DNA from: an uncultured Gammaproteobacteria bacterium
GTDB taxonomy: Bacteria > Pseudomonadota > Gammaproteobacteria > Poriferisulfidales > GCA-002705445
NCBI GenBank assembly: GCA_913050095.1
Contig: CAJXAV010000004.1
Span: forward strand, 1 to 61,599
Direction: 5' to 3'
Length of the DNA: 61,599 bases
Below the pieces are notes generated by a model, which saw only the letters and a program-made list of their open reading frames with translations, did no database searches and was not told where the DNA came from. The stretch's first letter is position 1. Every line of letters starts with the position of its first letter. Positions 27,555 to 44,970 of the stretch are shown piece by piece. The position numbers and the translations under genes are program-made.

Positions 27555-28844
27555 TCAAAAACGTGTCTTTATGGCTTTACCATTTTTAAATTTAACAATT
27601 ATTAGGTTTCTCCTAATTTTATTAAATTCGTCTAGTTTTAAATATCCTGTGTCGCCAGGTAAGTATTTATCTTTATATAATTCGAGTTCATATATATTAT
27701 AAATTATTTTAATAGAATCCATGCCTAAAGCAATGAATCTTAAAAGGTCTTTTTTTTCATTGTTTTCAAAAAAATATTCTTTATCAACAATATTTTTTTT
27801 ATTATATAACCAAGGTATATCGCAAAATTTAATATCATTCAGGTCACTATTTTTTTCTTTGTTAATTATTCCGTTGTAAATATGAGATGTTGAATAAAAA
27901 GGTATATTTTCAGCAAAATTAAAATCAAATTGCGGTTTTATTATTCGCATTTTTTTAGATGTGCCAACGGCAAAAATTGTATTTAAATCATTTGCAATAT
28001 ATGGTTTAAATTGTAATTTTACATTTAGAATATTTTGTATTTTATTTTTTCTTTTTATACTATCTTCAATATTTAGTAAGTTTTTAATTGAGTTATTAAT
28101 AGATTTATTTTCCTCATTATAAACAACGTTATCTATAATTTTCCCCCCTAGCTCTTCAAACCTTAATGAAAAAGACTGCGCTATTCTCTCTCCCCAGTTA
28201 TTATTTGGATAAAGAATAGATGCATTATTATTTCCATCAATGATAGATTTTTCAGCTATGCAAATTGCCTCATCTTCTGGAAGAAGTCCAAATTGATACA
28301 CATTTTTTGAATATTTATTTAATTTATTTGAATAATTTAAGGTTAATATTGGAATAGTCCCTTTATCATAGCTAATTATTTTATTTATTAATGGTTTTTT
28401 AAGAGGGCCTATAACAAAATCAAAATTTTGCCCAGTTATTTCAGAATAAATATTTTTTATATTTACATCTTCATCGCCTGTGTCATAAATAGAAATTTCT
28501 GGTTTTTCGTATTCTGATATTGAATCTAGCTGAATATTAATACCATCTAGTATGGATTTTCCAATCTTTGAATATTTTCCTGTCATAGGTAGCAAAATAG
28601 CAATTTTTTTTATTGGGGTAAGATTTGTTAATAAAATAGGCTCTTTCTCAATGAGAAGCTCGTTTATATTAAATTTATCCCTGTCTTCTTGATTTTTATT
28701 TGAATTTGTACTTTCTTTTTGTAATTCGTCATCTGCTATAATTTCCATAATGTTTGTATTGCAACCATAAAGCAATATACTAATAATTATTATTAAGAAT
28801 AATTTAAAGTAAGTATTTATATTTAAAGGTCTAAAATTTTGCAT
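27555..28844 (-). CDS. lpoA: LpoA/LppC-family lipoprotein (PBP1A activator), short form
   Basis: Lipobox LLYGC. The remainder resembles the periplasmic-binding-protein-like C-domain of LpoA (IAILLPMTGKYSKIGKSILDG, DTGDE, VIGPLKK, LTLNYS, FGLLPEDEA). Divergent from rsmI as in E. coli and Pseudomonas. Confidence 0.7.
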   Translation of the reverse strand: MQNFRPLNINTYFKLFLIIIISILLYGCNTNIMEIIADDELQKESTNSNKNQEDRDKFNINELLIEKEPILLTNLTPIKKIAILLPMTGKYSKIGKSILDGINIQLDSISEYEKPEISIYDTGDEDVNIKNIYSEITGQNFDFVIGPLKKPLINKIISYDKGTIPILTLNYSNKLNKYSKNVYQFGLLPEDEAICIAEKSIIDGNNNASILYPNNNWGERIAQSFSLRFEELGGKIIDNVVYNEENKSINNSIKNLLNIEDSIKRKNKIQNILNVKLQFKPYIANDLNTIFAVGTSKKMRIIKPQFDFNFAENIPFYSTSHIYNGIINKEKNSDLNDIKFCDIPWLYNKKNIVDKEYFFENNEKKDLLRFIALGMDSIKIIYNIYELELYKDKYLPGDTGYLKLDEFNKIRRNLIIVKFKNGKAIKTRF

Positions 28845-29708
28845 AATAGTAATAAAAACATCGAATTTGGTACATTATATGTTGTTGCGACTCCAATTGG
28901 TAATATAAATGATATCTCATTTAGAGCTGTTGAAATATTGTCGAAGGTTACTTTAATTGCAACGGAAGATACTCGCCATAGTAAAAAGTTATTGAATGCA
29001 TATGGTATAAAAACAAGACAAGTGAGCTATCATAAGTTTAATGAGCTAGAAAGGTGTGATTATTTAATAAAATTACTTAAAAAAGGTGACGATATAGCCA
29101 TTATCTCTGATGCTGGTACTCCTTGTATATCAGACCCAGGTGATGTGATAATTTCACAAGCCCATAAGGAAAATATTTGTATTACGCCAATACCAGGAGC
29201 TTCATCCGTGATATCCGCAATTTGCGCTAGTGGTTATGCGGCAAATGGCTTTAAATTTATTGGGTTTTTGCCAAAAAAAATATCTCAAAAGAAAGAAATT
29301 CTAAAAAATAGTACAAAAAATGATTGCGCATTAATTTTTTTCGAATCTCCAAATAGAGTAATTAGTACGCTGACTGAATTAAGAAATATATATAATAATA
29401 ATAAAGAATTATGTATAGCAAAAGAAATATCAAAAATTTATGAAGATATAAAAATAAAAAAAATTGATGATTGGCTAAATTATTTTGAAAAAGATAATAA
29501 AGAAAAGCTTAAAGGAGAGTTTGTATTTATTATTCCGGCTTCAGAAAATAATAATGAAGATTATTCAGAAAATGAAATTGAAGAATTTATTAAATTTTTA
29601 ATAGATTATAAGATTTCATATAGTACAGCTTTAAAAATAGTGTGTAAGCGTTTTAAGATCAACAAAAACGATATTTATAAGAAATATATCCACCTTGCAA
29701 ATAAATAG
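28839..29708 (+). CDS. rsmI: 16S rRNA (cytidine1402-2'-O)-methyltransferase
   Basis: 289 aa with LYVVATPIGNINDIS.RA, EDTRHSKKLL, SDAGTPCISDPG. The only in-frame start is the TTG at 28839. Confidence 0.9.
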   Translation: MHNSNKNIEFGTLYVVATPIGNINDISFRAVEILSKVTLIATEDTRHSKKLLNAYGIKTRQVSYHKFNELERCDYLIKLLKKGDDIAIISDAGTPCISDPGDVIISQAHKENICITPIPGASSVISAICASGYAANGFKFIGFLPKKISQKKEILKNSTKNDCALIFFESPNRVISTLTELRNIYNNNKELCIAKEISKIYEDIKIKKIDDWLNYFEKDNKEKLKGEFVFIIPASENNNEDYSENEIEEFIKFLIDYKISYSTALKIVCKRFKINKNDIYKKYIHLANK

Positions 29709-29730
29709 AATTTAATATTTAATTGAATTT

Positions 29731-30060
29731 GAGTCGACTGTGTAATCGCTTTGTTTTTACAAAGAGGAAAGTCTGGGCTCCAAAGAGTAGAGCGCCAGGT
29801 AACACCTGGGAAGTGTGAACTTACGGAAAGTGCAACAGAAAAGATACCGCAATTTAATTGTAAGGGTGAAATGGTAAGGTAAGAGCTTACCGCAATAATA
29901 GTAATATTATTGGCATGGCAAACCCCGCTCGGAGCAAGGCCAAATAGAAAAGCAATAGTGCTACTCGTACTGCTTTTGGGTAGGTTGCTAGATGTGTTTG
30001 GTGACAAACATACAAGATTAATGATTACATTCAACAGAACCCAGCTTATAGGTCGACTCG
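29731..30060 (+). ncRNA. rnpB: RNase P RNA, bacterial type A
   Basis: Terminal P1 pairing GAGTCGAC...GTCGACTC. P4 halves GAGGAAAGTCTGGGCTCC and ACAGAACCCAGCTTAT. Also carries GCCAGGTAACACCTGGG, AGTGCAACAGAAA, GGTAAGAGC, CGGAGCAAGGCCAAATAG. Sits between rsmI and mraZ as in Pseudomonas. Confidence 0.9.
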
Positions 30061-30182
30061 TCAATTTTTCGCAAAAATTAATACTTAAAGTTGTTTATTA
30101 AGTACAACATATATATTGTTGATTTAATCAGCACTTTTGCCTCAAATTTATTTCGTAAGTCATTGACAAATATAGAAAAATC

Positions 30183-30210
30183 TTGACAATATATTTTTTT
30201 GTAGCATTAT
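30183..30210 (+). promoter_or_regulatory. Putative Pmra sigma-70 promoter of the dcw cluster
   Basis: Perfect -35 TTGACA (30183-30188), a 16-nt spacer, then CATTAT (30205-30210). A second TTGACA lies at 30163-30168. Confidence 0.45.
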
Positions 30211-30235
30211 GTGGCTAAAAGTGGGTAATTGTGGG
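30211..30235 (+). promoter_or_regulatory. MraZ operator: three direct GTGG(G/C) repeats at 10-bp phasing
   Basis: GTGGCtaaaaGTGGGtaattGTGGG lies immediately downstream of the -10 and 13 nt upstream of the mraZ ATG. This matches the TGGGN-N5 triple-repeat architecture described for E. coli MraZ binding. Confidence 0.6.
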
Positions 30236-30247: not shown

Positions 30248-30700
30248 ATGTTTAAAGGTATAAGCAATTTAAATATAGATGCGAAAGGTAGAGCCTCAAT
30301 GCCAAACAGGTATAGGAAGCAATTTTGTTCTAAAAATAAATGTAATTTAGTTATTACAGCAGATAAAGATAAATGTTTGTTAGTATATACTTTAGCTGCT
30401 TGGAAAATAATTGAAAAAAAATTATCGAACCTACCTTCTTATAACAAGGAAGCACGTTTCATACAAAGATTACTAATAGGTTATGCAACAGAATCAGAGA
30501 TTGACTCTCAGGGAAGATTTTTAATTCCTACTCCTTTAAGAGAATATGCTTCCATAGAAAAAAAAATAGTTTTGTTAGGGCAAGGAAGTAAATTTGAATT
30601 ATGGTCTGAAAGTATCTGGAATAAAAATATTAAAAACTGGCTAGATGTTAATAAAAATAGTGATTCAAACAATGAGGCATTGAGTGAACTTAAATTATAA
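30248..30700 (+). CDS. mraZ: Transcriptional regulator MraZ
   Basis: 150 aa with two SpoVT/AbrB-like halves (DAKGRASMP, DSQGRFLIP). Collinear with E. coli MraZ. Confidence 0.9.
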   Translation: MFKGISNLNIDAKGRASMPNRYRKQFCSKNKCNLVITADKDKCLLVYTLAAWKIIEKKLSNLPSYNKEARFIQRLLIGYATESEIDSQGRFLIPTPLREYASIEKKIVLLGQGSKFELWSESIWNKNIKNWLDVNKNSDSNNEALSELKL

Positions 30701-30710
30701 ATTAGAGATT

Positions 30711-31640
30711 ATGAATACATCACATCAACCGGTAATGTTAAACACAGCAATAAATAATTTAAATATTATATCTGATGGTACTTATATTGATTGTACTTTT
30801 GGAAGAGGTGGTCATTCAAAAAAAATATTGAATAAGATAGGATTAAATGGAAAATTAATTGCAATCGATAAGGATCAAGAAGCAGAATATTGTGCAAGAA
30901 AAAATTTTAAAAATGATAAAAGATTTATTTTTGAGAGAAGCAATTTTAGTAACATTTTAAATATTGTTGAAAAACATAATCAATCAAAAAAAGTTAATGG
31001 TATTTTATTAGATCTAGGAGTTTCATCACCACAATTAGATAATGCTGAAAGAGGGTTTAGTTTTATGAAAGAAGGTCCTTTAGATATGAGAATGGACACT
31101 TCATCAAACCTAACAGCATTAGCCTGGTTAAGAGAAGCTGATGTCAAGGAAATAAGTATAGTTTTAAAAAAATATGGTGAAGAAAAGTATTCTTATAAAA
31201 TTTCAAAATCCATTAAAAAAGCATTAGAAGAAAACTTGCTACATACTACGGTAGATTTATCAAAAGTCATAAATGAATGTTATCCAAAGAGAACAAGTTA
31301 TAAAAAAAATCCAGCAACAAAAAGTTTTCAAGCAATAAGAATTTTTATTAATAAAGAATTACAAGAATTAGAAAAAATTTTAGACGATTGTTTAAAAATT
31401 ATGGAGATTGGTGGGAGATTAGTTGTGATTAGCTTTCATTCCTTAGAAGATCGAATAGTTAAGAATTTTATTAATAATCATTCAACAAATAAAAATATAA
31501 TTAGTAAATTGCCTATAAAAAATATTAGTCAAAATTTAAATTTAAAAAAAGTTAAAACACCTTTAAATGCTACACAAGAAGAAATAAAAGAAAATATTAG
31601 AGCACGTAGTGCGAAAATTAGGGTAGCTGAAAGAATATGA
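30711..31640 (+). CDS. rsmH: 16S rRNA (cytosine1402-N4)-methyltransferase
   Basis: HQPVML, DCTFGRGGHS, DLGVSSPQLD, SFHSLEDR. The track start at 30684 is a GTG inside mraZ. The ATG at 30711 is preferred. Confidence 0.9.
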   Translation: MNTSHQPVMLNTAINNLNIISDGTYIDCTFGRGGHSKKILNKIGLNGKLIAIDKDQEAEYCARKNFKNDKRFIFERSNFSNILNIVEKHNQSKKVNGILLDLGVSSPQLDNAERGFSFMKEGPLDMRMDTSSNLTALAWLREADVKEISIVLKKYGEEKYSYKISKSIKKALEENLLHTTVDLSKVINECYPKRTSYKKNPATKSFQAIRIFINKELQELEKILDDCLKIMEIGGRLVVISFHSLEDRIVKNFINNHSTNKNIISKLPIKNISQNLNLKKVKTPLNATQEEIKENIRARSAKIRVAERI

Positions 31641-31909
31641 GTAATCTGAAAATTTATACAATATGTGTGCTAATAATTCTAAATATAATTTTGTCTTTTA
31701 GCATTATTTGGTTAGAGCATTTAACAAGATCACAATTCAGAAGTCTTCAATCTTTATCAAATCAAAAATATGAGTTAAAAAATGAATGGAAAAAGACAAG
31801 AATCATAGAAAGTAGATATACATCACACAGTGGAATTGAGGCAAGAGCAGTAAAATATTTAAATATGTCAATACCAAAAAAAAGGGTGCTAATTAATATC
31901 AATGATTAA
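31637..31909 (+). CDS. ftsL: Cell division protein FtsL
   Basis: 90 aa with a single TM then a coiled coil. The IEARAVKYLNMSIP tail matches the FtsL family. Position is conserved. Confidence 0.8.
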   Translation: MSNLKIYTICVLIILNIILSFSIIWLEHLTRSQFRSLQSLSNQKYELKNEWKKTRIIESRYTSHSGIEARAVKYLNMSIPKKRVLININD

Positions 31910-33674
31910 TTATTTTAAACAATTAAAAAAAATAGACTATATAAAATTCTTTTTTTTAATACTTGTAAGTATCATTTTAATTAGATGCATCAATTTGCAG
32001 TTTACAGAGAATATAAAATATGTCAGTGAAATACAAAAAAGAGAAATTAGAAAAGTTACTATTAAAGCAAATAGAGGTGTAATAGTAGATAGAAATAAAA
32101 ATATTTTAGCAGATAGTATTTTATTAGATACATTAGAAGTTAACAATCCGAAAATTTTTTTAAATGAAAACGATAAAGAAAATATTCAAAAACTTTGTGG
32201 AATAATAAATAAAAAATGCCCTTCGTTGCTAAATAGTATTAAAAGAAAACAGAAAAAAAAATCTATTTATATCAAAAGACAGATTTCATCACTTAATCAA
32301 ATAAATGAAATAAAAAAATTAAAGTTAAAAGGAGTAGCCTTCAGAAAAGAACCTCAAAGATTTTATCCAGAGGGAGAAACTTTTGCTTCATTAATCGGTA
32401 AAACAAATATTGATCATATTGGTGGTATGGGTCTTGAGTTATCTTTCGAGACTCATTTAAAAGAAAGTGATGGGCAAAAAATTGTCAGGCAAGATAAAAA
32501 TACAAAATATATTGAAGACATAAGTCTTGTTAGCGAACCTAAAAATGGAAAGGATTTAGAATTAACAATAGATAAAAGGCTACAATATGTTGCATTTAGA
32601 GAATTAAAAAAACAAATTAATTTTATCAATGCAAAATCAGGATCTGTAGTAATTTTAGATACAACTAATGGTGATATATTAGCAGCAGCAAGTTATCCAT
32701 CATATGATCCTAATGATAGGAATTCTTACACAAAGAGCGCTGAGAGAAATAGAGCGATTGTTGATTCACTTGAACCCGCATCAACAATTAAACCATTCTT
32801 AGTTGCAGCAGCACTTCATTCAGGAAAAGTTAATTTAGGAGATATTTTTGATACGTCCCCAGGGTATATAAAGTTTGGTAAAAAGATATACAGGGACAAT
32901 TATAAAAATCATGGACCCCTAACTCTAGAGGGAATAATTTTAAAATCAAGTAATGTTGGTAGTATTTTAATTTCAAATCAATTTGATAAAAAAATATACC
33001 ACGAGCTTTTAGAGTATGTAGGTATTGGCGAAATGGTGAATATAAATTTTCCTTCAGAAATTCAAGGTGAGTTAAATCATCATACTGAATGGCAAGACAG
33101 TGATTTACGGTCACATGCCTTAGGGTATGCTTTAAAAGTAACTCCTTTGCAGTTAGCAAAAGCATACAGCGTAATAGCAAATGAGGGTATTGTTATACAT
33201 CCTAGGATTTTAAAAAATATTTCTATTCAAAAAAATAAAGATCAAAAATATAAAACTAGTTTTATTAAAATAAAAGAAATATTAAAAAAGAATGTTGAGA
33301 GCGGAACTGGCTATAATGCTGCAGTAAAAGGTTATAGTGTTGGAGGCAAAACTGGAACAGCTGAGCTATATACAGGTAACAAAAATGAAAAATATGATAA
33401 TAAAGAACACATATCATTATTTGCAGGCATAACCCCAATAACAAATCCAAAATTAGTAATTGTTGTTGTTATTAGTGAGCCAAAAACGAAAGCAAGGCAG
33501 TTTTTTGGAAGCAAAGTTTCAGCTCCGGTATTTAGTAAAATAGCGACTGACTCTTTAAGAATTTTAAATATTAGTCCAGATAATATTAAAGATTATCAAA
33601 ATCAAGTTTCAGCTGAAATTGAAAATACAGAAATATACACTTTAAAAACCCCGGAGGTCCATTATGTCTTTTGA
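31902..33674 (+). CDS. ftsI: Peptidoglycan D,D-transpeptidase FtsI (PBP3)
   Basis: 590 aa with an N-terminal TM and the motifs SxxK (ASTIKP), SxN (KSSNVG) and KTG (GKTGTA). Confidence 0.9.
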   Translation: MINYFKQLKKIDYIKFFFLILVSIILIRCINLQFTENIKYVSEIQKREIRKVTIKANRGVIVDRNKNILADSILLDTLEVNNPKIFLNENDKENIQKLCGIINKKCPSLLNSIKRKQKKKSIYIKRQISSLNQINEIKKLKLKGVAFRKEPQRFYPEGETFASLIGKTNIDHIGGMGLELSFETHLKESDGQKIVRQDKNTKYIEDISLVSEPKNGKDLELTIDKRLQYVAFRELKKQINFINAKSGSVVILDTTNGDILAAASYPSYDPNDRNSYTKSAERNRAIVDSLEPASTIKPFLVAAALHSGKVNLGDIFDTSPGYIKFGKKIYRDNYKNHGPLTLEGIILKSSNVGSILISNQFDKKIYHELLEYVGIGEMVNINFPSEIQGELNHHTEWQDSDLRSHALGYALKVTPLQLAKAYSVIANEGIVIHPRILKNISIQKNKDQKYKTSFIKIKEILKKNVESGTGYNAAVKGYSVGGKTGTAELYTGNKNEKYDNKEHISLFAGITPITNPKLVIVVVISEPKTKARQFFGSKVSAPVFSKIATDSLRILNISPDNIKDYQNQVSAEIENTEIYTLKTPEVHYVF

Positions 33675-34971
33675 ATTAATTGATACTAGAGAGCAGCAAG
33701 CTGATATAAAAGTTGTTGGTGTTGGAGGATGTGGAAATAATGCCATTGAATATATGATTAAAAATAAAGTAGGTGGAGTTGATTTCATTTGTGTCAATAC
33801 TGATGCGCAGGATTTAAAAAATAATCCTGTTAACGATAATCGAAAATGTAACATTGGACATAATATTACAAGAGGTTTAGGAGCAGGCGCAAATCCTGAA
33901 ATCGGAAGGCAAGCAGCTGTTGAAGATAGAGATAAGTTGAAAGAAGCAATTGAAAACTGTGATATGTTATTTATTACCGCAGGAATGGGAGGCGGAACAG
34001 GAACAGGAGCATCTCCAGTAATAGCAGAATTAGCAAAAGAATTAGGTATTCTTACAGTCGCTGTTGTAACTAAGCCCTGGAAATATGAAAAGAAAAAGAG
34101 AATGAAAAATGCTGAAATTGGTATAGAAGATTTAAGATCTAAAGTAGATTCATTAATCATTATTCCTAATGATAAATTATGTGCAGACAAAGATATGCCT
34201 TTATCAGAAGCTAAGAACCAATCAAATGCAGTATTAGAAAGAGCAGTAGGTGGCATTGCAGAATTAATAACAAAACCTGGCGAGATAAACTTAGATTTTG
34301 CAGATGTAAAAAGTGTAATGTCAAATGCAGGTTCAACAATGATGGGAAGCGGTATTGGTGAAGGAATAGATCGAGCAGAGGATGCTATCAGGCAAGCTAT
34401 CGCAAGCCCATTATTAGAAGATGTAAATGTTCAAGATGCAAAAGGTTTGTTAATAAACATAACTTCAGATGGTAGTTTAACGAATGGTGAATTTGAGGCC
34501 ATAGGCGAACATATTGGTAGTTTGGTAGACGAAGAAGAAGCCGATGTTATTGTAGGTACAACAATTGATGAGTCATTGGAAGATAGAATTAAGGTTACAG
34601 TTGTGGCAACAGGTATGAATAATACCCAAACACTAAAAACACAAGAAAATATTAATGAAAAAATAGTTGACATAAAATTAGATCCAGTAATTAGTAATAA
34701 AGAAATTATTTCCGAACAAGAACCTGAAATATTGGTGAATAATTTTGAAGATGAAATAATTAACCAAGAGGAAAATTATATAAGTGAGGATGCATATCCA
34801 AATTACGCAAAACAAGATCAATATGATTCTTATGAAAAGAATGAGGAAAATATTGAAAAGAAAGAAAAAATAAAAATAGAAAAAAATATAGAGTACAAAA
34901 AAAATAGCAATGGTGAATTAGATTTAGATTTTCTAGACATACCAGCATTTTTAAGAAAGCAAGCAGATTAA
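33664..34971 (+). CDS. ftsZ: Cell division GTPase FtsZ
   Basis: 435 aa. T1 loop GVGGCGNNA, tubulin signature AGMGGGTGTGASPV, T7 NLDFADV, and C-terminal peptide DLDFLDIPAFLRKQAD. Strong GGAGG RBS. The start overlaps the ftsI stop by 11 nt. Confidence 0.95.
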   Translation: MSFELIDTREQQADIKVVGVGGCGNNAIEYMIKNKVGGVDFICVNTDAQDLKNNPVNDNRKCNIGHNITRGLGAGANPEIGRQAAVEDRDKLKEAIENCDMLFITAGMGGGTGTGASPVIAELAKELGILTVAVVTKPWKYEKKKRMKNAEIGIEDLRSKVDSLIIIPNDKLCADKDMPLSEAKNQSNAVLERAVGGIAELITKPGEINLDFADVKSVMSNAGSTMMGSGIGEGIDRAEDAIRQAIASPLLEDVNVQDAKGLLINITSDGSLTNGEFEAIGEHIGSLVDEEEADVIVGTTIDESLEDRIKVTVVATGMNNTQTLKTQENINEKIVDIKLDPVISNKEIISEQEPEILVNNFEDEIINQEENYISEDAYPNYAKQDQYDSYEKNEENIEKKEKIKIEKNIEYKKNSNGELDLDFLDIPAFLRKQAD

Positions 34972-34987
34972 ATTAAAGGAGTTATAT

Positions 34988-35122
34988 ATGAAAAAAATTA
35001 TGTATTATGGAATAATATTTATAGGATTTACTCTATTGGTTGGTTGTAACACATTCGATGGAATAGGTAGGGATATATCAGCAGCAGCCGAATGGGTTAG
35101 CGGATCTGTGAATGATGAGTAA
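34988..35122 (+). CDS. Entericidin (EcnA/B)-family small lipoprotein, 44 aa (absent from the ORF track)
   Basis: My own translation gives MKKIMYYGIIFIGFTLLVGCNTFDGIGRDISAAAEWVSGSVNDE. It has the lipobox LLVGC followed by NT..G.G.DI, as in entericidins. AAGGAG RBS lies 6 nt upstream. It fills the ftsZ-murE spacer. Confidence 0.55.
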   Translation: MKKIMYYGIIFIGFTLLVGCNTFDGIGRDISAAAEWVSGSVNDE

Positions 35123-35136: not shown

Positions 35137-36594
35137 ATGAAATTACAAGATCTTATTAATAGTAAGATATTTTTGCATAGCAAAATAAATATATCTGGGC
35201 TTAGTGAAAATAGTAAAGAAATAAAAAAAAATTATATTTTTTTTTTAAAAGACACTTTAAAAACAAAAGAATCTTATATCAAAGAAGCAATACAAAAAGG
35301 CGCAAGCTTAATTATTTATTGTAAAAATAATCATATAGATATAAATAAATATAATGATTCATGTTTATTTTATAAGGTAAATAATATAAATGAATCAATG
35401 TCTAATCTAGCAAGAAAATTTTATAAAATAAAAAAATTAGATGCAAAGATTATAGGAATAACAGGTACAAATGGAAAAACATCAGTATCTGATTTCATAG
35501 GACAACTCAAAAAAATAAAAAAAGAAAAATGCGGAATAATTGGTACATCTGGAAGCGGTATATATCCAAATCTAAAAAATAAAGAATTAACTACTCCAAA
35601 TATAATTAATATAAATAAGAACATACGAAGTTTCATAAATAAAGATGCTGAAACTATTACAATGGAGGTTTCTTCGCACGGTATAGATCAAAATAGAATA
35701 AGAGGAGTAGAATTTGACACTGTAGTATTTACAAATTTAAGTCAAGATCATCTTGATTATCATAAAACAATGAGCTCCTACTTCAATGTAAAAGTTAAAT
35801 TATTTACAGAGTACAAAAGTAAGAAAAAAATAATTTGCATTGACGGAACTTATGGTAAAAAAATCTATAACATATTAAAAAAAGAAAATAATTTGTTAAC
35901 TGTATCAATAAATAATAATAAAGCTGATTATTACGCTTCTGATATTAATTTTTTAGATTCAGGAATAAATTTTAATATAAACTCAAAATACGGTAAAAGA
36001 AAAATTTCTACAAAATTATATGGAAAATTTTCAATAATAAATCTACTAATATCTATTGCAACAGTAGCCTCAAACAAAAAAGAATACAATTTATTAATAG
36101 ACAATATTGGTAAAATTAAACATGTTAATGGTAGAATGAATAAATATAACTCAAAAGGAAGACCTATAACATTCATAGATTTTGCTCATACACCAGAAGC
36201 AATTAATGAAGTTCTAATTTCCACAAAAAAACATTTTATAAATAAAAAAATTATTACTGTATTTGGTTGCGGGGGTAATAGAGATAGCCTGAAAAGAAAA
36301 TTAATGGGAAAAGTTGTTTCAAATAATTCTGATAAAATCATTATAACAAATGATAACCCAAGAAATGAAGAACCAAAAATGATAGTAAATGATATAATCT
36401 CCGGATTTAAAGACCTCACAAAATACAAAATTATATTTGACAGAAAAAAAGCAATAAAGAAAGCTCTTGAACTAAAAAACTCAGAAAATATAGTTTTAAT
36501 TTTAGGAAAGGGGAATGAGGAATTTCAAATCGTTAAAAATAAGAAAATTCTACATAGCGATGATAAGGTAGTTAAAAAAATATTAAAATTATGA
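35137..36594 (+). CDS. murE: UDP-MurNAc-L-Ala-D-Glu:meso-DAP ligase
   Basis: 485 aa Mur ligase (GITGTNGKTS, DNPR motif TNDNPRNEEP). Confidence 0.9.
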   Translation: MKLQDLINSKIFLHSKINISGLSENSKEIKKNYIFFLKDTLKTKESYIKEAIQKGASLIIYCKNNHIDINKYNDSCLFYKVNNINESMSNLARKFYKIKKLDAKIIGITGTNGKTSVSDFIGQLKKIKKEKCGIIGTSGSGIYPNLKNKELTTPNIININKNIRSFINKDAETITMEVSSHGIDQNRIRGVEFDTVVFTNLSQDHLDYHKTMSSYFNVKVKLFTEYKSKKKIICIDGTYGKKIYNILKKENNLLTVSINNNKADYYASDINFLDSGINFNINSKYGKRKISTKLYGKFSIINLLISIATVASNKKEYNLLIDNIGKIKHVNGRMNKYNSKGRPITFIDFAHTPEAINEVLISTKKHFINKKIITVFGCGGNRDSLKRKLMGKVVSNNSDKIIITNDNPRNEEPKMIVNDIISGFKDLTKYKIIFDRKKAIKKALELKNSENIVLILGKGNEEFQIVKNKKILHSDDKVVKKILKL

Positions 36595-37970
36595 AAAAAT
36601 ATTCATTATCAAAAATCGCAGAACATTTAAATGGAAAATTATTTGGAAAAGATCAATTAGTTTCAAATTTTTCAATAGATTCAAGAACAATAAAGAAAGA
36701 TGACGTATTTATTTGTATTAAAGGTAAAGTTTACGACGGACATGATTTTATCCAAGATGTTATTCAAAACTCTTCATGCATCATAACTTCAAAAAATATA
36801 GAAAATATAAATTTAAAAACAAATTCATATATAAAGGTCGAAAATACAATTGAGGCCTTACATAATTTAAGTAAGTATATTAGAAGCAAAAGTAATGCAA
36901 AATTTATTGCAATTACTGGTTCAAACGGCAAAACTACAGTTAAAGAAATGGTCGCTCATATATTATCAGATTTCAAAATATGTTACACAAAAGGAAATCT
37001 AAATAATAATATTGGTGTACCTTTAACAATTTTTTCAATTAACCAAGATGAAGATTTTGTAATTATTGAAATTGGCTCAAATCACATGGGCGAAATCGAA
37101 CCACTAGCAAAAATTGTTAAGCCAGATGTAGCAGCTGTAACAAATATTGGCTTTGCGCATATTGAAGGCTTCAAAAACTTAGAAAATACAGCAAAAGAAA
37201 AATTTAGTTTATTTAAACAGCTAAATAAAGATGGTGTTTCAGTGATTAATTCTTCAGACAACTATGATAATAATTTTAAAAAGGGCAATAAATTATATTT
37301 TGGAAAAGAATATGGCTTTATAAAAAAATTTATGAATAAAATTAAAAATTTTCCATATAAGACAAGTTTTTTAAAGGTTAATAGATGTGAAGAAAATTTT
37401 TATAAATTTTCTATAAATAACAAGGATATCGATTTAAAATTAGCAATTAATGGTGAGCACAATTATTATAATGCTGGATGCGCTATGTCTATTTGTCTAA
37501 GCCTAGGGATTGAAATAGAACATATAGTAAAAAAATTAGAAAATTTTCAGGAAGTATCATCAAGATTAAATTTATATAAATTAGAAAAAAATATAAAATT
37601 AATTGATGATTGTTATAATGCAAATCCTAACTCTTTTGAAGCGGCAATCACATATTTGTCAAGCTTTGATGAAAATAAATTGGTTTTGATGGGTGATATG
37701 GTAGAGTTAGGAAAAGATACAAAAACTTTTCATGCAGAGATAGGCATGTTTGCAAAAAAAAGAGGAATTAATAAATTTTTAAGTATTGGTGTAAATAGTA
37801 AATTTGCTTCAGATGTATTTGGTTTAAATGGTTATCATTTTGAAAATGCAGAAAGTTTAAAATCATATTTGAATAATAACCTAGAGTCTTCTTCAGTAAT
37901 ACTTATTAAAGGTTCAAGATCAGCTAAACTAGAAGAATATGTGGAATTTTTAAAAACTAGGAGTTTGTAA
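36591..37970 (+). CDS. murF: UDP-MurNAc-tripeptide:D-Ala-D-Ala ligase
   Basis: 459 aa Mur ligase (ITGSNGKTT, DDCYNANP). ATGA overlap with murE. Confidence 0.9.
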   Translation: MKKYSLSKIAEHLNGKLFGKDQLVSNFSIDSRTIKKDDVFICIKGKVYDGHDFIQDVIQNSSCIITSKNIENINLKTNSYIKVENTIEALHNLSKYIRSKSNAKFIAITGSNGKTTVKEMVAHILSDFKICYTKGNLNNNIGVPLTIFSINQDEDFVIIEIGSNHMGEIEPLAKIVKPDVAAVTNIGFAHIEGFKNLENTAKEKFSLFKQLNKDGVSVINSSDNYDNNFKKGNKLYFGKEYGFIKKFMNKIKNFPYKTSFLKVNRCEENFYKFSINNKDIDLKLAINGEHNYYNAGCAMSICLSLGIEIEHIVKKLENFQEVSSRLNLYKLEKNIKLIDDCYNANPNSFEAAITYLSSFDENKLVLMGDMVELGKDTKTFHAEIGMFAKKRGINKFLSIGVNSKFASDVFGLNGYHFENAESLKSYLNNNLESSSVILIKGSRSAKLEEYVEFLKTRSL

Positions 37971-37971
37971 G

Positions 37972-39051
37972 ATGTTTCTGTATTTATTAGATTTTCTTAG
38001 TGACATTAACCAAAACTTTATGGTTTTGGAATATATTACATTAAGATCAATTTTAAGTATTATAACGGCTTTATCAATTTCTCTTTTTTTAGGTCCATTT
38101 ATAATTAATAAATTTCAAATTAATAATCTATCAGAAGTTATAAGAGAAGACGGACCTAGCTCGCACATGAATAAATCAGGAACACCAACTATGGGTGGTT
38201 TATTAATTTTATCGTCATTATTAATTTCAACATTAATTTGGTCAGATTTAGAAAATAAATATATCCTATATTTAATTTCCACAACCATAGTTTTTGCAAT
38301 AATCGGCTTTATTGACGATTACGAAAAGTTAACAAAAAATAAAAATGGTATGTCTGCAAAAACAAAAATTATTCTACAATTACTTGCTGCAGGCATTATA
38401 TCCTTCATCATGTTCAAGTTTATAGAAAGTCCACAAGAACAACAATTTATTATTCCATTCTTTAAAGACATAGTAATTGACCTAGGAATCTTTTTTATTC
38501 CTTTTGTCATGTTGGTAATAGTTTCTACAAGTAACGCAGTAAATTTAACAGATGGGTTAGATGGGTTAGCAATTATGCCAATTGTTTTAGTAAGTGGTGC
38601 TTTAGGAATATTTGCTTATCTAAGTGGGAATATAAATTTTTCTGAATATCTTTTAATACCATATATAAAGGATGCTGGAGAGATTACAATTTTTATAGGC
38701 GCTATAGTTGGCTCTGGCCTTGGATTCTTATGGTTTAACACCTACCCTGCTCAAGTATTCATGGGTGATGTCGGAGCATTATCATTAGGTGCTGCAATTG
38801 GTCTGATGGCTGTTATCGTAAGACAAGAAATAGTATTAATAATAATGGGAGGTATTTTTGTGATAGAAGCACTCTCGGTAATTATTCAGGTATTGTCATT
38901 CAAATATAGAAAAAAAAGAGTATTTTTGATGGCGCCATTTCATCATCACTTTGAGCAAAAAGGATGGGCAGAACCAAAAATAGTAGTAAGATTTTGGATT
39001 ATAAGTTTCATTCTTATTTTAATAGGTTTGGCAACAATAAAATTGAGATAA
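37972..39051 (+). CDS. mraY: Phospho-N-acetylmuramoyl-pentapeptide transferase
   Basis: 359 aa, 10-TM. Motifs: GTPTMGG, NAVNLTDGLDGLA, FMGDVGALSLG, APFHHHFE. Confidence 0.95.
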   Translation: MFLYLLDFLSDINQNFMVLEYITLRSILSIITALSISLFLGPFIINKFQINNLSEVIREDGPSSHMNKSGTPTMGGLLILSSLLISTLIWSDLENKYILYLISTTIVFAIIGFIDDYEKLTKNKNGMSAKTKIILQLLAAGIISFIMFKFIESPQEQQFIIPFFKDIVIDLGIFFIPFVMLVIVSTSNAVNLTDGLDGLAIMPIVLVSGALGIFAYLSGNINFSEYLLIPYIKDAGEITIFIGAIVGSGLGFLWFNTYPAQVFMGDVGALSLGAAIGLMAVIVRQEIVLIIMGGIFVIEALSVIIQVLSFKYRKKRVFLMAPFHHHFEQKGWAEPKIVVRFWIISFILILIGLATIKLR

Positions 39052-39064
39052 AAAATTATAAGTT

Positions 39065-40414
39065 ATGATAAAAAGTAATTTACCATTAGCAATCATTGGA
39101 TTAGGAAAAACTGGAAAATCAATTGCTAAGTATTTAAATAAAATAAATTGTGATTTCATAGTATATGATACTAGAAAAGATTTAGAAATTACAAAAGAAA
39201 TAAAGAAAGAAATAAATGAAAATAAAATAATATTGGGTGAATTTAAAGAAGAATACATAGAAAATCACGATAACTTTATTGTAAGCCCTGGAATAAAATT
39301 AGAAAAAAATATTATAGAAAAAATTAAAATTTCAAAAAAAAATATTCAAACAGATATAGATATTTTTAATGGTAAAAAAAGAAAAAATGTTATCTGCATA
39401 ACTGGCACAAATGGAAAGACTACTGTAACACTTCTTATTGAGCATATATTAAAAAACTTAGGAAAGAAGGTAAAAGCAGGTGCAAACGTTGGTTTACCAG
39501 TATTAGAGTTATTAAGTGAAGATTATGAATATAATATTTTAGAGCTATCAAGTTTTCAATTAGAGATGACGAAAACAATTAATAGCAAAATTTCTTTAAT
39601 AACAAATATAACACCAGACCATTTAGATAGACACGAGAATTTTGAAAATTACGTAATATTAAAAAATAAAATATTTAATAATGCTGAAATCTCTATTTTC
39701 AATAGATTAGATAATAATATAAATTCTAAAGCTACAGAAGAAAGATATACTTTTGGTGCAGATGTAGGCCAAAGTCTTAATGATTTTGGTATCATTAAAG
39801 AAAATAATATTAATTATATTTCTCAAGGAAAAAAGAAAATAATAAGTGAAAATGATGTGCAGCTTATTGGCAAACATAATTTTATTAATATTTGTGCCGC
39901 TTTAGCTGTTATAAAAGCCTTAAAATTAGACGTGGAATTAGCAGCACAAACTATAAAAAAATTTGGTTGTGTAGAACATAGAATGGAAAACTTCTTAAAA
40001 AACGACAATATTTCATGGATAAATGATTCAAAATCTACAAATATAGACTCTACAATATCAGCTATAAAATCTCTTGATAAAAATATAGTACTTTTAATGG
40101 GCGGCAGATCAAAAACTAATGACTATAGCGAATTAGAAAAAGTTCTAAAAAATAAAGTAGATAAAATAATTTTTTTTGGTGAAAGCAAAAATTTTCTTAA
40201 AAATGCCTTGAAATCTGTTAAAGACATTTCAATTGCGAACAATATGGAACATGCTGTATGCGAAGCTATTAATTTTATAAATATAAAAAAAGAAAACTGT
40301 GAAGAAAATATGTATATTATATTATCGCCTGCATGCTCAAGTTATGATATGTATAAATCGTTTGAAGAAAGGGGTAAAAGTTTCAAAAATCATGCAATTA
40401 ATCAATACAAATGA
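39065..40414 (+). CDS. murD: UDP-MurNAc-L-Ala:D-Glu ligase
   Basis: 449 aa (GLGKTG Rossmann, ITGTNGKTT, NDSKSTN). Confidence 0.9.
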   Translation: MIKSNLPLAIIGLGKTGKSIAKYLNKINCDFIVYDTRKDLEITKEIKKEINENKIILGEFKEEYIENHDNFIVSPGIKLEKNIIEKIKISKKNIQTDIDIFNGKKRKNVICITGTNGKTTVTLLIEHILKNLGKKVKAGANVGLPVLELLSEDYEYNILELSSFQLEMTKTINSKISLITNITPDHLDRHENFENYVILKNKIFNNAEISIFNRLDNNINSKATEERYTFGADVGQSLNDFGIIKENNINYISQGKKKIISENDVQLIGKHNFINICAALAVIKALKLDVELAAQTIKKFGCVEHRMENFLKNDNISWINDSKSTNIDSTISAIKSLDKNIVLLMGGRSKTNDYSELEKVLKNKVDKIIFFGESKNFLKNALKSVKDISIANNMEHAVCEAINFINIKKENCEENMYIILSPACSSYDMYKSFEERGKSFKNHAINQYK

Positions 40415-40423
40415 ACAATTTAT

Positions 40424-41578
40424 ATGAATAATAAAAGAAATAATAATTTAAGTAATATTATTAAACCTTTTTTTGATTTAAATCTTTTTTTTATAATTCT
40501 AACAATAATTTTATTTGGGTTAATAACTTTAAGCACAGCATCTATTGAGCTTTCCACACAAGAACATAATTACCCTTTCCATTTTTTATTTCGTCAGGTA
40601 TGTTATCTTTTATTTAGTATATTTGTTTGTTCTTTTTTTATATATTTAAGCACATATAATATTAAAAAAAATTATAAAGTATTCTTCTATTTTTTTATTA
40701 CATTATTAATTATTGTTGTCATACCAAACATTGGAAATACAGTTGGTGGAAGTACTAGATGGCTAAGTTTCTATGGATTCAATCTACAACCATCAGAGTT
40801 TTATAAATTATTTTATATTGTTTGGCTATGTGCGTTTTTAGATTTTAATAGTAAAAATATAAAAAAACTTGAGATATTTGTTATACCTTTTTTTTGGTTT
40901 TTTATTAGCGCTGTACTTTTAATGTTACAACCAGATTTTGGTTCTACAGTTATTTTATTCTTCATGACTTTGATTATGCTTTTTCTAGCAAACGCAAGAT
41001 TTATTTATTTAGTAACTGTTGCATTTTTTGGTTTTATAGGAGGAGCAATAATTATTGCTAACTATGCTTACATTAGAAAAAGACTTGATTTTTTTGAACC
41101 TTGTCAGGATTACTTAGATGGAGGATATCAACTCTGTTATTCATTAATGGCTATTGGTAGTGGTGGTGTTTTTGGGAAAGGTTTAGGATCAAGTACATCA
41201 AAACTATTTTATTTGCCAGAGGCTCATACAGATTTTATCTTTGCTGTTCTCGCTGAGGAATTAGGTATTTTCGGAATACTTTTTATTATTTTATTATTCT
41301 ATCTTTTCCTTAGAAAATGCATATCAATTGGTAAAAAAGCTATGAGGGTTGGTTTAGTTTTTCAGGGTTATTTATCATACGCGATTGGTATATTTATAAC
41401 ATCTCAGGTTTTCTTTAACATGGCAGTTGTATTAGGTATTGCACCTACAAAAGGCTTAGCTCTTCCGTTTTTTAGTTATGGTGGAAGTAATTATTTAGTT
41501 TCATTATTATCTGTAACTATAATATTTAGAATATATAGAGATGTTTATAAGAAAAGTTTGAATAGCTCTATAAGATAG
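40424..41578 (+). CDS. ftsW: SEDS peptidoglycan glycosyltransferase FtsW
   Basis: 384 aa polytopic protein (QPSEFYKL, LPEAHTDFIFAVLAEELG, LPFFSYGGSN). Confidence 0.9.
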   Translation: MNNKRNNNLSNIIKPFFDLNLFFIILTIILFGLITLSTASIELSTQEHNYPFHFLFRQVCYLLFSIFVCSFFIYLSTYNIKKNYKVFFYFFITLLIIVVIPNIGNTVGGSTRWLSFYGFNLQPSEFYKLFYIVWLCAFLDFNSKNIKKLEIFVIPFFWFFISAVLLMLQPDFGSTVILFFMTLIMLFLANARFIYLVTVAFFGFIGGAIIIANYAYIRKRLDFFEPCQDYLDGGYQLCYSLMAIGSGGVFGKGLGSSTSKLFYLPEAHTDFIFAVLAEELGIFGILFIILLFYLFLRKCISIGKKAMRVGLVFQGYLSYAIGIFITSQVFFNMAVVLGIAPTKGLALPFFSYGGSNYLVSLLSVTIIFRIYRDVYKKSLNSSIR

Positions 41579-41587
41579 TTTTAACAT

Positions 41588-42664
41588 ATGAAAAATATAC
41601 AAAAAAAAGTAGTTATATTTGCAGCTGGGACAGGAGGTCATATATACCCAGGTCTTTCAATTGCAAACTATTTAATATCGAAAGATATTTCTGTTTTATG
41701 GATTGGCACTAAAAAAGGGATGGAAAAAAAGATAATAGAAGATACTAATATTCCAATTGAATACGTTGATTTTTCAGGTATTAGAGGAAAGGGATTACTT
41801 ATATATTTAAAACTACCTTACATGTTATTAAAATCAATATTTCAAGCTATTAAGATAATAAAAAATTTTCAGCCAAATGCAGTGTTATCAATGGGTGGTT
41901 ATATTAGTTTTCCATGTGCTGTTGCAGCATATGTACTTAGAAAGAAAATTATAGTACATGAGCAAAATATTATTTTTGGAATGACAAATAATTTAATTAG
42001 ATTTTTTTCAAATTTAGTTATATTAGGATTCCCAATGAACATAAACAATAAAAAATATAAGTTTTTAGGAAATCCTTCAAGATACGAAAATAGTATATTA
42101 GAAAAAAAGAATAATAAAAAAGAATTTAATATATTAGTTATAGGCGGAAGTTTAGGAGCAAAAATATTCAACGAGGTGATTCCTCAATCAATCTATAAAT
42201 TAATAAATACAACAAATTTAAAGGTTAATGTTATTCATCAAACAGGAAAAACATACAAAGTGGCAGAAATTCAGTATAGAAATATAAATATAAATATTGA
42301 TCTGAGAGAATATATTGAAGATATGGAAGAAGTTTATAATTGGTGTGATGTCATTGTGTGTAGGGGAGGAGCAATTACAATTACAGAAATCATGAATTTA
42401 GGAATACCTGCAATTATTATTCCATATCCATATTCTGTAGATGATCATCAAATGAAAAATTGCGAATATTTGCAAAATAATAATGCTGCTATTGTAATTA
42501 ACCAAGAAAACTTAACACAAGATTACCTTGCAAGTATTTTTTTATCTTTAATAAAAAATTCGAATATTACAAAAGAATTAAAAAAAAATGTATTAAAATT
42601 AAATATGAAAGATTCTACAAAGAATATATGCGATGAAATAATTAATAATATGCGTAATAATTAG
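41588..42664 (+). CDS. murG: UDP-GlcNAc:lipid I GlcNAc transferase
   Basis: 358 aa (AAGTGGHIYPGL, GGSLGA, CRGGAITITE). Confidence 0.9.
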   Translation: MKNIQKKVVIFAAGTGGHIYPGLSIANYLISKDISVLWIGTKKGMEKKIIEDTNIPIEYVDFSGIRGKGLLIYLKLPYMLLKSIFQAIKIIKNFQPNAVLSMGGYISFPCAVAAYVLRKKIIVHEQNIIFGMTNNLIRFFSNLVILGFPMNINNKKYKFLGNPSRYENSILEKKNNKKEFNILVIGGSLGAKIFNEVIPQSIYKLINTTNLKVNVIHQTGKTYKVAEIQYRNININIDLREYIEDMEEVYNWCDVIVCRGGAITITEIMNLGIPAIIIPYPYSVDDHQMKNCEYLQNNNAAIVINQENLTQDYLASIFLSLIKNSNITKELKKNVLKLNMKDSTKNICDEIINNMRNN

Positions 42665-42667
42665 AAT

Positions 42668-44071: not shown

Positions 44072-44073
44072 TT

Positions 44074-44970
44074 ATGGAAAATATTGAAACTATACAAAAA
44101 ATGGTTAAAGGAAATTTAAGAAAAAATGTATCTTTAAAAGAATACAATACATGGAAAGTTGGCGGTAAAGCTGAATATTTCTTTGAACCAAAAAATCTAG
44201 ATGATCTAATAACATTTCTAAAAAATGTAAATAAAAAAAATGTAACATTTTTAGGAAATGGTAGTAATGTATTAATAAGAGACGGTGGAATAAATGGCTT
44301 TGTTATATGCTTAAAAAGTTCTTTGAACAATTATAAACTAAAGCAAAATAATGAATTTATCTTTGAGGCAGGCTTATCATGCATGAAAATTGCTCAAATT
44401 ACAGCAAGAGAGAATTTTACCGGACTCGAGTTTCTATGTGGTATTCCTGGTTCACTGGGTGGCGCATTAGCAATGAATGCAGGATGTTATGGAGGAAATG
44501 TATGGGAGTATGTTACATCTGTAGATTTAATAGATAAAAAAGGAAATATACTAAAAAAAACGAAAGAAGATTTTAAAATCGGTTATAGAAAAATTAATCT
44601 TGATAAAGATTTATTTTTTATTAGCGCTACGTTTTCATTAAAAGAAAATTTATTAAAAAATTCCTCAAGTATCATAAAAGAGTATCTTAAAGATAGGCGA
44701 AGTAAGCAACCAACTGGCCAACCAAGTTGCGGATCTGTTTTTAAAAATCCTGAAAATTCTCATGCTGCTAGCTTAATCGATTCTTTAGGATTAAAAGAGT
44801 ATAAAATTGGTGGTGCGCAAGTTTCAAAAAAACATGCAAACTTTATAATTTCAAATAAAACCGCATCCTCTCTCGATATAGAAAATTTAATAGAATATAT
44901 TCAAAAAAAAGTATATGAAAAAAAGAAAATATATCTTGAAACTGAAGTGAAATTTATTGGGACAAACTAA
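44074..44970 (+). CDS. murB: UDP-N-acetylenolpyruvoylglucosamine reductase
   Basis: 298 aa FAD-binding PCMH domain (LGNGSN.LI, GIPGSLGGALAMNAG, PSCGSVFKNP). Confidence 0.9.
   Translation: MENIETIQKMVKGNLRKNVSLKEYNTWKVGGKAEYFFEPKNLDDLITFLKNVNKKNVTFLGNGSNVLIRDGGINGFVICLKSSLNNYKLKQNNEFIFEAGLSCMKIAQITARENFTGLEFLCGIPGSLGGALAMNAGCYGGNVWEYVTSVDLIDKKGNILKKTKEDFKIGYRKINLDKDLFFISATFSLKENLLKNSSSIIKEYLKDRRSKQPTGQPSCGSVFKNPENSHAASLIDSLGLKEYKIGGAQVSKKHANFIISNKTASSLDIENLIEYIQKKVYEKKKIYLETEVKFIGTN

Follow-up and report, generated by a model that had tools for sequence, protein, structure and literature searches.

The adjacency of ftsA and ftsZ is among the most persistent in bacterial genomes, and in model organisms the supply of FtsZ rests on promoters located within the ftsQ and ftsA genes as well as on an FtsZ:FtsA ratio that is tuned. 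The gene cluster for division and the cell wall (dcw) of an uncultured gammaproteobacterium of the GTDB group GCA-002705445 (GenBank assembly GCA_913050095.1) raises the question of how such a pair can come apart, and of how ftsZ may be expressed once it has. In the 61,599 nt analyzed here (contig CAJXAV010000004.1, positions 1 to 61,599, hereafter the window), ftsZ lies between ftsI and murE, and ftsA is followed by lpxC. Our answer to the first part of the question is that this is very probably an ancient and fixed relocation of the lineage's own ftsZ from the ftsA-lpxC position to the ftsI-murE position, which left the old site cleanly closed. This would have happened in the ancestor from which a deep, very AT-rich (26–30% GC), small-genome lineage of marine Gammaproteobacteria descends. 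The relocation taken together with the expression model proposed below for the displaced gene makes an account that we consider likely.

Gene identities were assigned by NCBIfam scans of the list of open reading frames (ORFs), with Pfam and Rfam scans in addition. On the plus strand, the NCBIfam scans gave the order mraZ-rsmH-ftsL-ftsI-ftsZ-(44-amino acid lipoprotein)-murE-murF-mraY-murD-ftsW-murG-murC-murB-ddl-ftsQ-ftsA-186 bp-lpxC. The first four genes, mraZ (30248–30700), rsmH (30684–31640), ftsL (31637–31909), and ftsI (31902–33674, with its TGA stop at 33672–33674), overlap by 17, 4, and 8 nt in turn, and they are followed by ftsZ (33664–34971, 435 amino acids), the small lipoprotein ORF (34988–35122), and murE (35137–36594). 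From murE through ftsA (35137–47821) the order is canonical, with gaps of −4 to +14 nt, and by the gap table neighboring genes from mraZ to ftsA either overlap or lie at most 14 nt apart. While the run murE-murF-mraY-murD-ftsW-murG-murC-(murB)-ddl-ftsQ-ftsA is collinear with the canonical dcw cluster, two of the canonical adjacencies are missing. The contiguous string ftsQ-ftsA-ftsZ is broken, as 3′ of ftsA (46595–47821) there is an AT-rich spacer of 186 bp (47822–48007), which we read as the vacated ancestral site of ftsZ, and then lpxC (48008–48931). Likewise, ftsI and murE are no longer adjacent, because ftsZ and the 44-amino acid ORF intervene; no ORF besides this small one was added at the insertion point of ftsZ. 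An earlier note on this DNA had claimed both the gene order and the uncoupling of ftsZ from ftsA, and the genes and positions that it listed were borne out by the scans and the sequence, including lpxC in the place after ftsA and the 186-bp spacer, the ecn-like label alone holding only in part.

Judged from its translation, the product of the displaced gene is a bona fide FtsZ. It scored 387.7 bits against the TIGR00065 equivalog (cut-off 295.2), and Pfam recognized in it both the Tubulin domain PF00091 (172.7 bits) and FtsZ_C, PF12327 (94.8 bits). The translation carries the tubulin signature GMGGGTGTGA and a T7-loop region, INLDFADV; the GGGTGTG motif and the T7 loop act in GTP binding and hydrolysis. 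The C terminus reads LDIPAFLRKQAD, and its last 11 residues, DIPAFLRKQAD, are presumably identical to those of the E. coli protein. In the E. coli-type FtsZ used for comparison (P0274), which is 52% identical to that of the window over the core, the end is frameshifted, so that the tail is not visible there. The C-terminal peptide of FtsZ is the binding site for FtsA, ZipA, and ZapD. Of these partners, FtsA and ZapD are both encoded in the window (zapD at 54565–55338 on the minus strand, Pfam ZapD PF07072, E=8e-39), and zapD is also present in the relative L012.

Relatives were sought by scanning one genome from each GTDB species for the pattern and by look-ups of FtsZ, FtsA, and MurC homologs in metagenome contigs; the sequence covered was 61.6 kb for the present genome and no more than 21 kb for any relative. 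The GTDB scan returned four relatives (L001–L004), all uncultured marine Gammaproteobacteria and among them the single-cell genome AG-390-O20, with the order rsmI-mraZ-rsmH-ftsL-ftsI-ftsZ-ORF-murE. Their FtsZ proteins are 67–91% and the flanking proteins 52–89% identical to those of the window. The order ftsI-ftsZ-ORF-murE was also found in L005–L011, L025, and L028. An identical FtsZ is encoded on a JGI contig of 817,209 bp (JGI 3300046171, Ga0494230_0036) and a 79% relative on a contig of 1,098,683 bp, both with the relocated order, and the FtsZ family of the window lineage is extremely abundant in marine metagenomes. At the other junction, FtsA homologs with 75% and 80% identity are directly followed by lpxC, a small minus-strand ORF, an M23 peptidase gene, and secA. 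The MurC scan of metagenomes contributed ten further loci of the clade, in which ftsA is followed by lpxC in 5/5 informative cases and ftsI by ftsZ in 2/2. In all, ftsA precedes lpxC in the seven informative loci of the clade (L012, L013, L025, L026, L028, L029, and L030), and both junctions stand on one contig in L025 and in L028, the latter from a contig of 133 kb. All the loci of the clade have 26–30% GC.

A chimeric or mis-joined contig could also have put ftsZ between ftsI and murE, and the suspicion is not idle, as the window contig is evidently metagenome-derived and assembly is difficult for populations that are AT-rich and micro-diverse (PMC13558084). However, the same junctions are present in many assemblies produced by different methods, namely a single-cell genome, metagenome-assembled genomes (MAGs) of different studies, ENA, JGI, and Logan sequences, and the contigs of 0.82 and 1.1 Mb. 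Across these assemblies FtsZ has diverged to 48–91% identity, yet the overlap with ftsI is conserved to the base. This replication in independent assemblies, at both junctions, refutes an assembly artefact, to which we give practically no credence. On a separate matter of assembly quality, in the 1.1-Mb contig of L009 (JGI 3300046170 Ga0494229_00038) the genes mraZ, murE, murF, ftsW, and murB were each called in at least two pieces, and they are intact in the near-identical L010 and L011. This looks like the outcome of sequencing or assembly frameshift errors rather than of pseudogene formation.

How old the rearrangement may be is indicated by a deeper lineage. In an exhaustive search of representatives, the FtsZ clade of the window was isolated, its own representative being 69% identical and the next relative, P0243, about 47–48%. 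This protein belongs to a rarer marine lineage with 29.8% GC (L014/L015), and its contig, of 239.7 kb (ENA ERZ6778701 NODE_33, 239,710 bp), carries the order cytb-cytc1-GST-...-LppC-rsmI-mraZ-rsmH-ftsL-ftsI-ftsZ-44-amino acid ORF-murE. The overlap of ftsI and ftsZ in L014 is 11 nt, as it is in the window. The dcw proteins of L014 are 40–68% identical to those of the window, with FtsZ (48%) in the middle of this range. In a neighbor-joining tree built from 308 columns of the FtsZ core, with 100 bootstraps, the two relocated clades join at 78% and fall among the FtsZ proteins of E. coli, Methylophaga, Methylocaldum, and marine Gammaproteobacteria. Most simply, ftsZ moved once, in an ancestor common to both lineages. 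The earlier note had taken the arrangement for fixed rather than recent; in agreement, the relocated order is common to independent relatives and to a deep sister lineage whose dcw proteins have diverged to 40–68% identity. As to the note's refuting condition that all close relatives share this order, they do, which lessens the impression of a one-off event.

Other proteins considered during this search had different outcomes. P0449, P0474, and P0505 were rejected as sister lineages, being ordinary high-GC gammaproteobacterial FtsZ proteins, and P0426 and P0482, which had been considered as possible SAR86 members, were rejected because their loci have 45–46% GC and are canonical. P0258 (L022) is on a fragment of 1.7 kb with 24% GC and was uninformative. 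Two further proteins unrelated to the window lineage, P0242 (840 amino acids) and P0245 (826 amino acids), contain two complete FtsZ cores in tandem in each polypeptide. As for the FtsZ of the window itself, clade-specific substitutions occur in two motifs that are elsewhere highly conserved: residues 21–27 read GGCGNNA instead of GGGGGNA, and residues 137–146 read KPWKYEKKKR instead of KPFxFEGxKR. The clade-specific Trp of the latter motif is common to P0241 and P0244 of the same clade and is not found in P0243.

The place from which ftsZ moved can be seen by comparison with ordinary marine Gammaproteobacteria. In L016, L017, and L018 (43–46% GC), the order is murC-murB-ddl-ftsQ-ftsA-ftsZ-lpxC-DciA (minus strand)-M23-secA-argJ. 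The downstream synteny of the window, which comprises lpxC, a DciA-like ORF, the M23 peptidase gene, and secA (48008–52776, all on the plus strand except the DciA-like ORF), is that of these canonical clusters minus ftsZ, and argJ follows secA in both the window and L012. Among 70 loci from outside the clade that were collected with the MurC scan (29–70% GC), ftsZ comes after ftsA in 33 of the 34 loci that are informative, and murE after ftsI in all of the 24. The shared downstream synteny and this survey together indicate that ftsZ departed from the site between ftsA and lpxC. In the relatives, the spacer left at this site is ∼120 bp long and has the same ends as that of the window, the spacers being alignable only at these ends, and no remnant of ftsZ was seen in the 186 bp of the window spacer. 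Relative to L012 and L013, the window spacer has ∼59 extra nucleotides right after the ftsA stop codon (47822–47880), which contain the A/T palindrome GCCTTTTTTTTTAAAAAAAAGG. The DciA-like ORF of the window (48928–49215, minus strand, 95 amino acids) is a weak match, as its E-value of 1.9e-4 to PF05258 is just under the cut-off, and it sits where the canonical Gammaproteobacteria have clear DciA genes of 135–152 amino acids.

A departed gene could nevertheless be present twice, with the relocated ftsZ as an extra copy and a canonical ftsZ elsewhere in the genome. Two points here weigh against a relocation: only partial genomes were seen, to the extents given above, and the ftsA-lpxC junction of the L014 lineage is outside the recovered sequence, so that relocation rather than duplication is assumed for that lineage. 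On the other hand, the ancestral site is empty in 7/7 loci of the clade in which it is visible, and the relocated FtsZ has every canonical feature, including the tail that binds its partners. Besides, genomes of 0.8–1.1 Mb would seldom retain redundant essential genes, and the GTDB pattern scan, though blind to a divergent paralog, gave one locus per genome. We consider an extra copy very improbable and return to a relocation.

Whether the relocated gene is native or an import was approached through divergence and composition. Compared with canonical Gammaproteobacteria, FtsZ is 47% identical, MurC 44–46%, MurB 39–47%, Ddl 44–45%, and FtsA 52–53%, and the GC content at third codon positions (GC3) is 0.177 in ftsZ and 0.13–0.21 in its neighbors. 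As FtsZ has diverged in step with its neighbors and its GC3 matches theirs, the gene would be a native one that was relocated long ago, not a recent import. The earlier note had seen neither flanking repeats nor mobile-element remnants, and our scans gave the same picture. No repeats flanking the block of ftsZ and the small ORF, or linking this block to the ftsA-lpxC spacer, were found, the only matches being AT-rich chance matches and those due to the P-loop paralogy of the Mur ligases, and the scan of the window for tRNA genes was negative. None of the marks of a mobile element or genomic island (repeats, an integrase or transposase gene, a tRNA target, atypical composition) is present at ftsZ.

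These results also bear on a xenologous replacement, in which the insertion of a foreign cassette of ftsZ and the lipoprotein gene was followed by loss of the native ftsZ from its place after ftsA. The accompanying small gene, which is missing from the surveyed canonical dcw loci, gives the pair the look of a two-gene cassette, and the FtsZ clade is on a long branch, with a core identity of only 52–59% to any FtsZ outside it. Nevertheless, the divergence of FtsZ parallels that of the flanking genes in every comparison, its GC3 is indistinguishable from theirs, and the region lacks repeats, integrase genes, and tRNAs. The tail DIPAFLRKQAD is of the gammaproteobacterial, E. coli type, and the closest FtsZ proteins outside the clade are those of ordinary Gammaproteobacteria, not of another phylum. 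To be set against a native origin are the lack of support for the deep nodes of the FtsZ tree and the fact that an ancient transfer from a related gammaproteobacterium would give the same pattern. On balance, replacement is disfavored and appears improbable, and the relocation of a native ftsZ is retained in what follows.

The second part of the question concerns the expression of ftsZ at its new address, beginning with translation. The ATG of ftsZ at 33664 overlaps the end of ftsI by 11 nt (33664–33674), so that the TGA of ftsI spans codons 3 and 4 of ftsZ, and a GGAGG stands at 33653–33657, 6 nt ahead of the ATG; the overlap with the ftsI stop and the gene's own ribosome-binding site, both claimed in the earlier note, can thus be read directly. 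This Shine-Dalgarno (SD) sequence is contained in the codons ACC CCG GAG GTC (T-P-E-V) of the FtsI tail (33648–33659, plus strand). The predicted duplex of the SD with the anti-SD, at −10.2 kcal/mol, ranks first among the 59 ORFs of the window, for which the median is −2.4. The four codons that bear it, ACC, CCG, GAG, and GTC, make up 7.3%, 7.9%, 21%, and 7.1% of their respective codon families in the window, with a joint expectation of 8.7e-5. Moreover, the SD motif is kept in 7/7 aligned lineages, L003 having the variant GGGAG, and the junction ATGTCTTTTGAA, including the ftsI stop, is invariant across the 7 lineages. The use of rare codons for the SD, together with the conservation of both the SD and the junction, argues for selection on the translation signal of ftsZ and on the overlap of the two genes. 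A conserved RNA structure was not found at the ftsI/ftsZ junction (−1.2 kcal/mol, no covariation).

With respect to transcription, mraZ is the first gene of the cluster, as in the canonical dcw, and has a candidate promoter and putative MraZ boxes upstream. The candidate Pmra (30163–30210, plus strand) consists of two overlapping sigma-70-like matches, TTGACA-16-GACAAT and TTGACA-16-CATTAT, which are the only plus-strand matches near a gene start to reach 10/12 with a full TTGACA. It is followed by three direct boxes, GTGGC, GTGGG, and GTGGG, at 30211, 30221, and 30231, with an exact spacing of 10 bp (30211–30235, plus strand), which form a putative MraZ operator. The E. coli MraZ operator is likewise made of GTGGG repeats with a 10-bp periodicity, and MraZ-like boxes also stand ahead of mraZ in L019, a distant locus described below. 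The promoter-like pair lies about 3.46 kb from the ftsZ ATG, close to the ∼3.4 kb given for Pmra in the earlier note, and no terminator-like sites were found on the plus strand between 29700 and 49300.

In E. coli, the cell requires far more copies of FtsZ than of FtsI, and ftsZ is fed by promoters inside ftsQ and ftsA, the extra promoters raising FtsZ over FtsI. Given this excess of FtsZ over FtsI, some step downstream of an operon promoter must amplify FtsZ. We propose that ftsZ would now be gene five of an operon led by mraZ and would owe its transcription to the MraZ-operated promoter ∼3.5 kb upstream, not to promoters in ftsQ and ftsA, and that the excess of FtsZ over FtsI would be set mainly at translation initiation by the SD, the strongest in the window. 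This SD would be held inside the ftsI tail against the codon bias of the genome, and the start of ftsZ, overlapping the stop of ftsI, would let ribosomes be handed on from one gene to the next. In this way the place of ftsZ in the operon and the strength of ribosome binding, not local promoters, would fix the FtsZ:FtsA ratio. Built as it is on predicted signals, this single-operon model might equally well prove right or wrong.

Two results qualify the proposal. Canonical ftsZ loci also have good SDs, of −5.8 to −9.1 kcal/mol; the strength of the signal was retained, not newly gained, and the notable point is that the SD is maintained inside the ftsI coding sequence, not how strong it is. A promoter scan of the region from 29.7 to 49.3 kb gave 120 sites, with 134 expected by chance at 28% GC and no excess over shuffled sequence, and is uninformative apart from the mraZ leader.

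A different solution would be that ftsZ has its own promoter in the 3′ end of ftsI, so that the address of the gene changed and its specific transcription logic stayed the same. There is a candidate for it, a TTAAGA-N18-GATAAT match at 33555–33584, ∼80 nt upstream of the ATG, which is conserved across the window clade, and it is generally known that FtsZ must greatly exceed FtsI and that E. coli uses extra promoters for this. The match reaches only 9/12, however, in a scan without excess over chance. It also falls in the codons of the conserved FtsI residues SLRILNISPDN, so that the coding constraint on FtsI explains its conservation, and its −10 element is lost in the deep L014 lineage. We regard an internal promoter of this kind as possible but doubtful, and continue with transcription from the mraZ leader as the working model.

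The gene that follows ftsZ (34988–35122, plus strand) encodes 44 amino acids with the lipobox LLVGC and is preceded by an AAGGAG of its own. None of the relocated loci lacks it, that of the deep L014 lineage included, and its identity among them is 57–91%. The earlier note had called it ecn-like, and this label held in part. The ORF shares the lipobox and a C-N-T-x-x-G-x-G-x-D-I core with EcnA and EcnB of E. coli (as translated from the NC_000913.3 sequence), and its invariant residues in common with these are C20, N21, T22, G25, G27, D29, and I30. Its best NCBIfam matches are indeed to entericidin A/B (E about 2e-4), but at 21.1 bits for NF007319 (cut-off 86) and 20.6 bits for NF007487 (cut-off 94) the family cut-offs are not reached, and there is no Pfam match at E<0.1. 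The product is, on these motifs, entericidin-like and not a demonstrated member of the family. In a motif scan of all the collected loci, the motif occurred, apart from the E. coli control, only beside the relocated ftsZ. An ecnA/ecnB tandem pair was not found, as each locus has a single copy and no second motif match nearby.

Other low-GC contigs (31–37.5%) also have ftsZ early in the cluster; they are short or partial, and at least those of L075 and L076 come from marine metagenomes. L019 (ENA ERZ27294333 k141_34407, 6350 bp, 37.5% GC; L019:2101-4702) has the order rsmI-RNase P RNA-mraZ-ftsZ-rsmH-ftsL-ftsI. Its FtsZ (P0250) scores 400 bits against TIGR00065, its annotated start is without an SD, and the contig ends before the ftsA region. 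L075 (Tara contig CETM01000478.1, 33% GC; L075:1-14978) reads ftsZ-ftsI-murE-...-murC-ddl-rpsF-rpsR-rplI-dnaB; the tail of its ftsZ is DYLDIPSFVRTQLD, a gap of 13 nt separates it from ftsI, and neither ftsQ nor ftsA lies between ddl and rpsF, the flank covered stopping at ftsZ on the upstream side. A third type, ftsZ-like-rsmH-ftsL-ftsI-...-murC-ddl-ftsQ-like-ftsA-rpsF-rpsR-rplI-dnaB-alr, is represented by L076:2-14062 and L080:29-13806 (31–32% GC) and occurs also in L081, L084, and L085, on Tara and JGI marine contigs. The FtsZ fragment of this type is without the canonical C-terminal peptide and best matches long FtsZ proteins of 500–600 amino acids, and the FtsA is only 31–35% identical to that of the window; the type may belong to a non-gammaproteobacterial plankton lineage. 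The L019 FtsZ falls outside the window clade in the neighbor-joining tree, the partial FtsZ proteins of L075 and L076 were compared by BLAST only, with no match close enough to extend their contigs, and the motif scan found no entericidin-like gene in L019, L075, or L076/L080. The ftsZ positions of L019, L075, and L076 are probably independent of the move in the window clade. A separate set of loci (L048, L052, L057–L060, and L065; 35–38% GC) has murC-murB-ddl(-ftsQ) by itself; further dcw genes were not detected in flanks of up to 10 kb per side, some loci having shorter ones, so that the cluster is broken up in still other marine lineages.

Such cases suggest that a shift of ftsZ toward the operon promoter is a recurrent event among streamlined marine genomes. 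A tentative extension, which we think rather unlikely as it stands, is that this is a recurrent adaptive move in streamlined, low-GC bacterioplankton, in which internal promoters and regulators would be lost and both the dosage of FtsZ and the FtsZ:FtsA ratio hard-wired by position and SD, with independent insertion points (behind ftsI in the window, behind mraZ in L019, ahead of ftsI in L075), and in which the lipoprotein might be a new envelope or division factor with its amount tied to that of FtsZ.

The marine origin of the lineage, its 26–30% GC, the contigs of 0.8–1.1 Mb, and an H4MPT-type formyltransferase in the window agree, as circumstantial evidence, with what is published on GCA-002705445. 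GCA-002705445 and PIVX01 are marine orders known only from MAGs and are sisters of SAR86, for which published genomes have 31–40% GC and at least about 1.05 Mb (PMC11582366). As the single-cell genome AG-390-O20 is also absent from the genome tables of that study, SAR86 was set aside as the primary assignment. GCA-002705445 is of very low GC, is up to 15-fold under-represented in Illumina reads, and includes genomes that are small and circular yet are scored as incomplete (PMC13558084), and dissimilatory methylotrophy has been described in it (PMC8371827). At 79–2526 on the minus strand, the window carries in a row folD, an H4MPT-type formylmethanofuran:tetrahydromethanopterin formyltransferase gene (FTR, both lobes), and a 5-formyltetrahydrofolate cyclo-ligase gene. 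The putative H4MPT-type formyltransferase beside folD is a one-carbon oxidation signature consistent with the methylotrophy of the group. Upstream of the dcw cluster are rsmI (28839–29708) and, between it and mraZ, the RNase P RNA gene (29730–30064, plus strand; 317 bits in Rfam), besides which the Rfam scan of the window found nothing. The RNase P RNA is also visible by eye between rsmI and mraZ in the spacer of the distant L019, which points to an old synteny.

What is unusual in this locus is that ftsA and ftsZ have been stably parted in an abundant ocean lineage while the rest of the cluster stayed intact; its parts and their biochemistry are ordinary. Literature searches covering the order of dcw genes, rearrangements of ftsZ, and SAR86, the largest dcw survey not among the texts covered, gave no description of ftsZ between ftsI and murE. 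As the break has been stable over a long evolution, the adjacency of ftsA and ftsZ is not mechanistically required. No new molecular machinery is implied, and yet a dispensable ftsA-ftsZ link would surprise specialists in cell division. The clade also offers a natural experiment on how position in an operon and signals for translation might by themselves determine FtsZ dosage, a question that marine metatranscriptomes and metaproteomes already at hand could address. The order ftsI-ftsZ-ORF-murE is in addition a simple genomic marker for a poorly known clade, and the other early ftsZ positions in low-GC marine contigs suggest a more general rule for streamlined genomes.

Three known systems can be compared with this arrangement. 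The canonical proteobacterial dcw cluster, as in E. coli and Pseudomonas, has the same genes in the same order except for ftsZ. It is also a mraZ-first operon with a promoter and GTGGG-type MraZ boxes, of which those of the window are candidate and putative, respectively, and it shares the flanks, rsmI and the RNase P RNA gene upstream and lpxC-DciA-M23-secA downstream. The difference is that the ftsZ of the window has its place between ftsI and murE, 11.6 kb farther upstream, overlapping ftsI and followed by an extra lipoprotein gene, and that the promoters in ftsQ and ftsA which, as is generally known, feed ftsZ in E. coli would no longer be able to act on it. The small protein encoded after ftsZ resembles the entericidins EcnA and EcnB of Enterobacteria in size (41–48 amino acids), lipobox, and core, and differs from them in that its gene is single and lies inside the dcw operon, and in its distinct C-terminal half, SAAAEWVSG. 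Finally, the minimal dcw cluster of the Mollicutes (mraZ-mraW-MG_223-ftsZ in Mycoplasma genitalium) likewise has ftsZ near mraZ under a MraZ-regulated operon promoter (PMC8475190, PMC12957436). There, however, the proximity came about through the loss of the intervening cell-wall genes (PMC8475190), while the window lineage keeps all of these genes, only ftsZ having moved and ftsA having stayed in its place.

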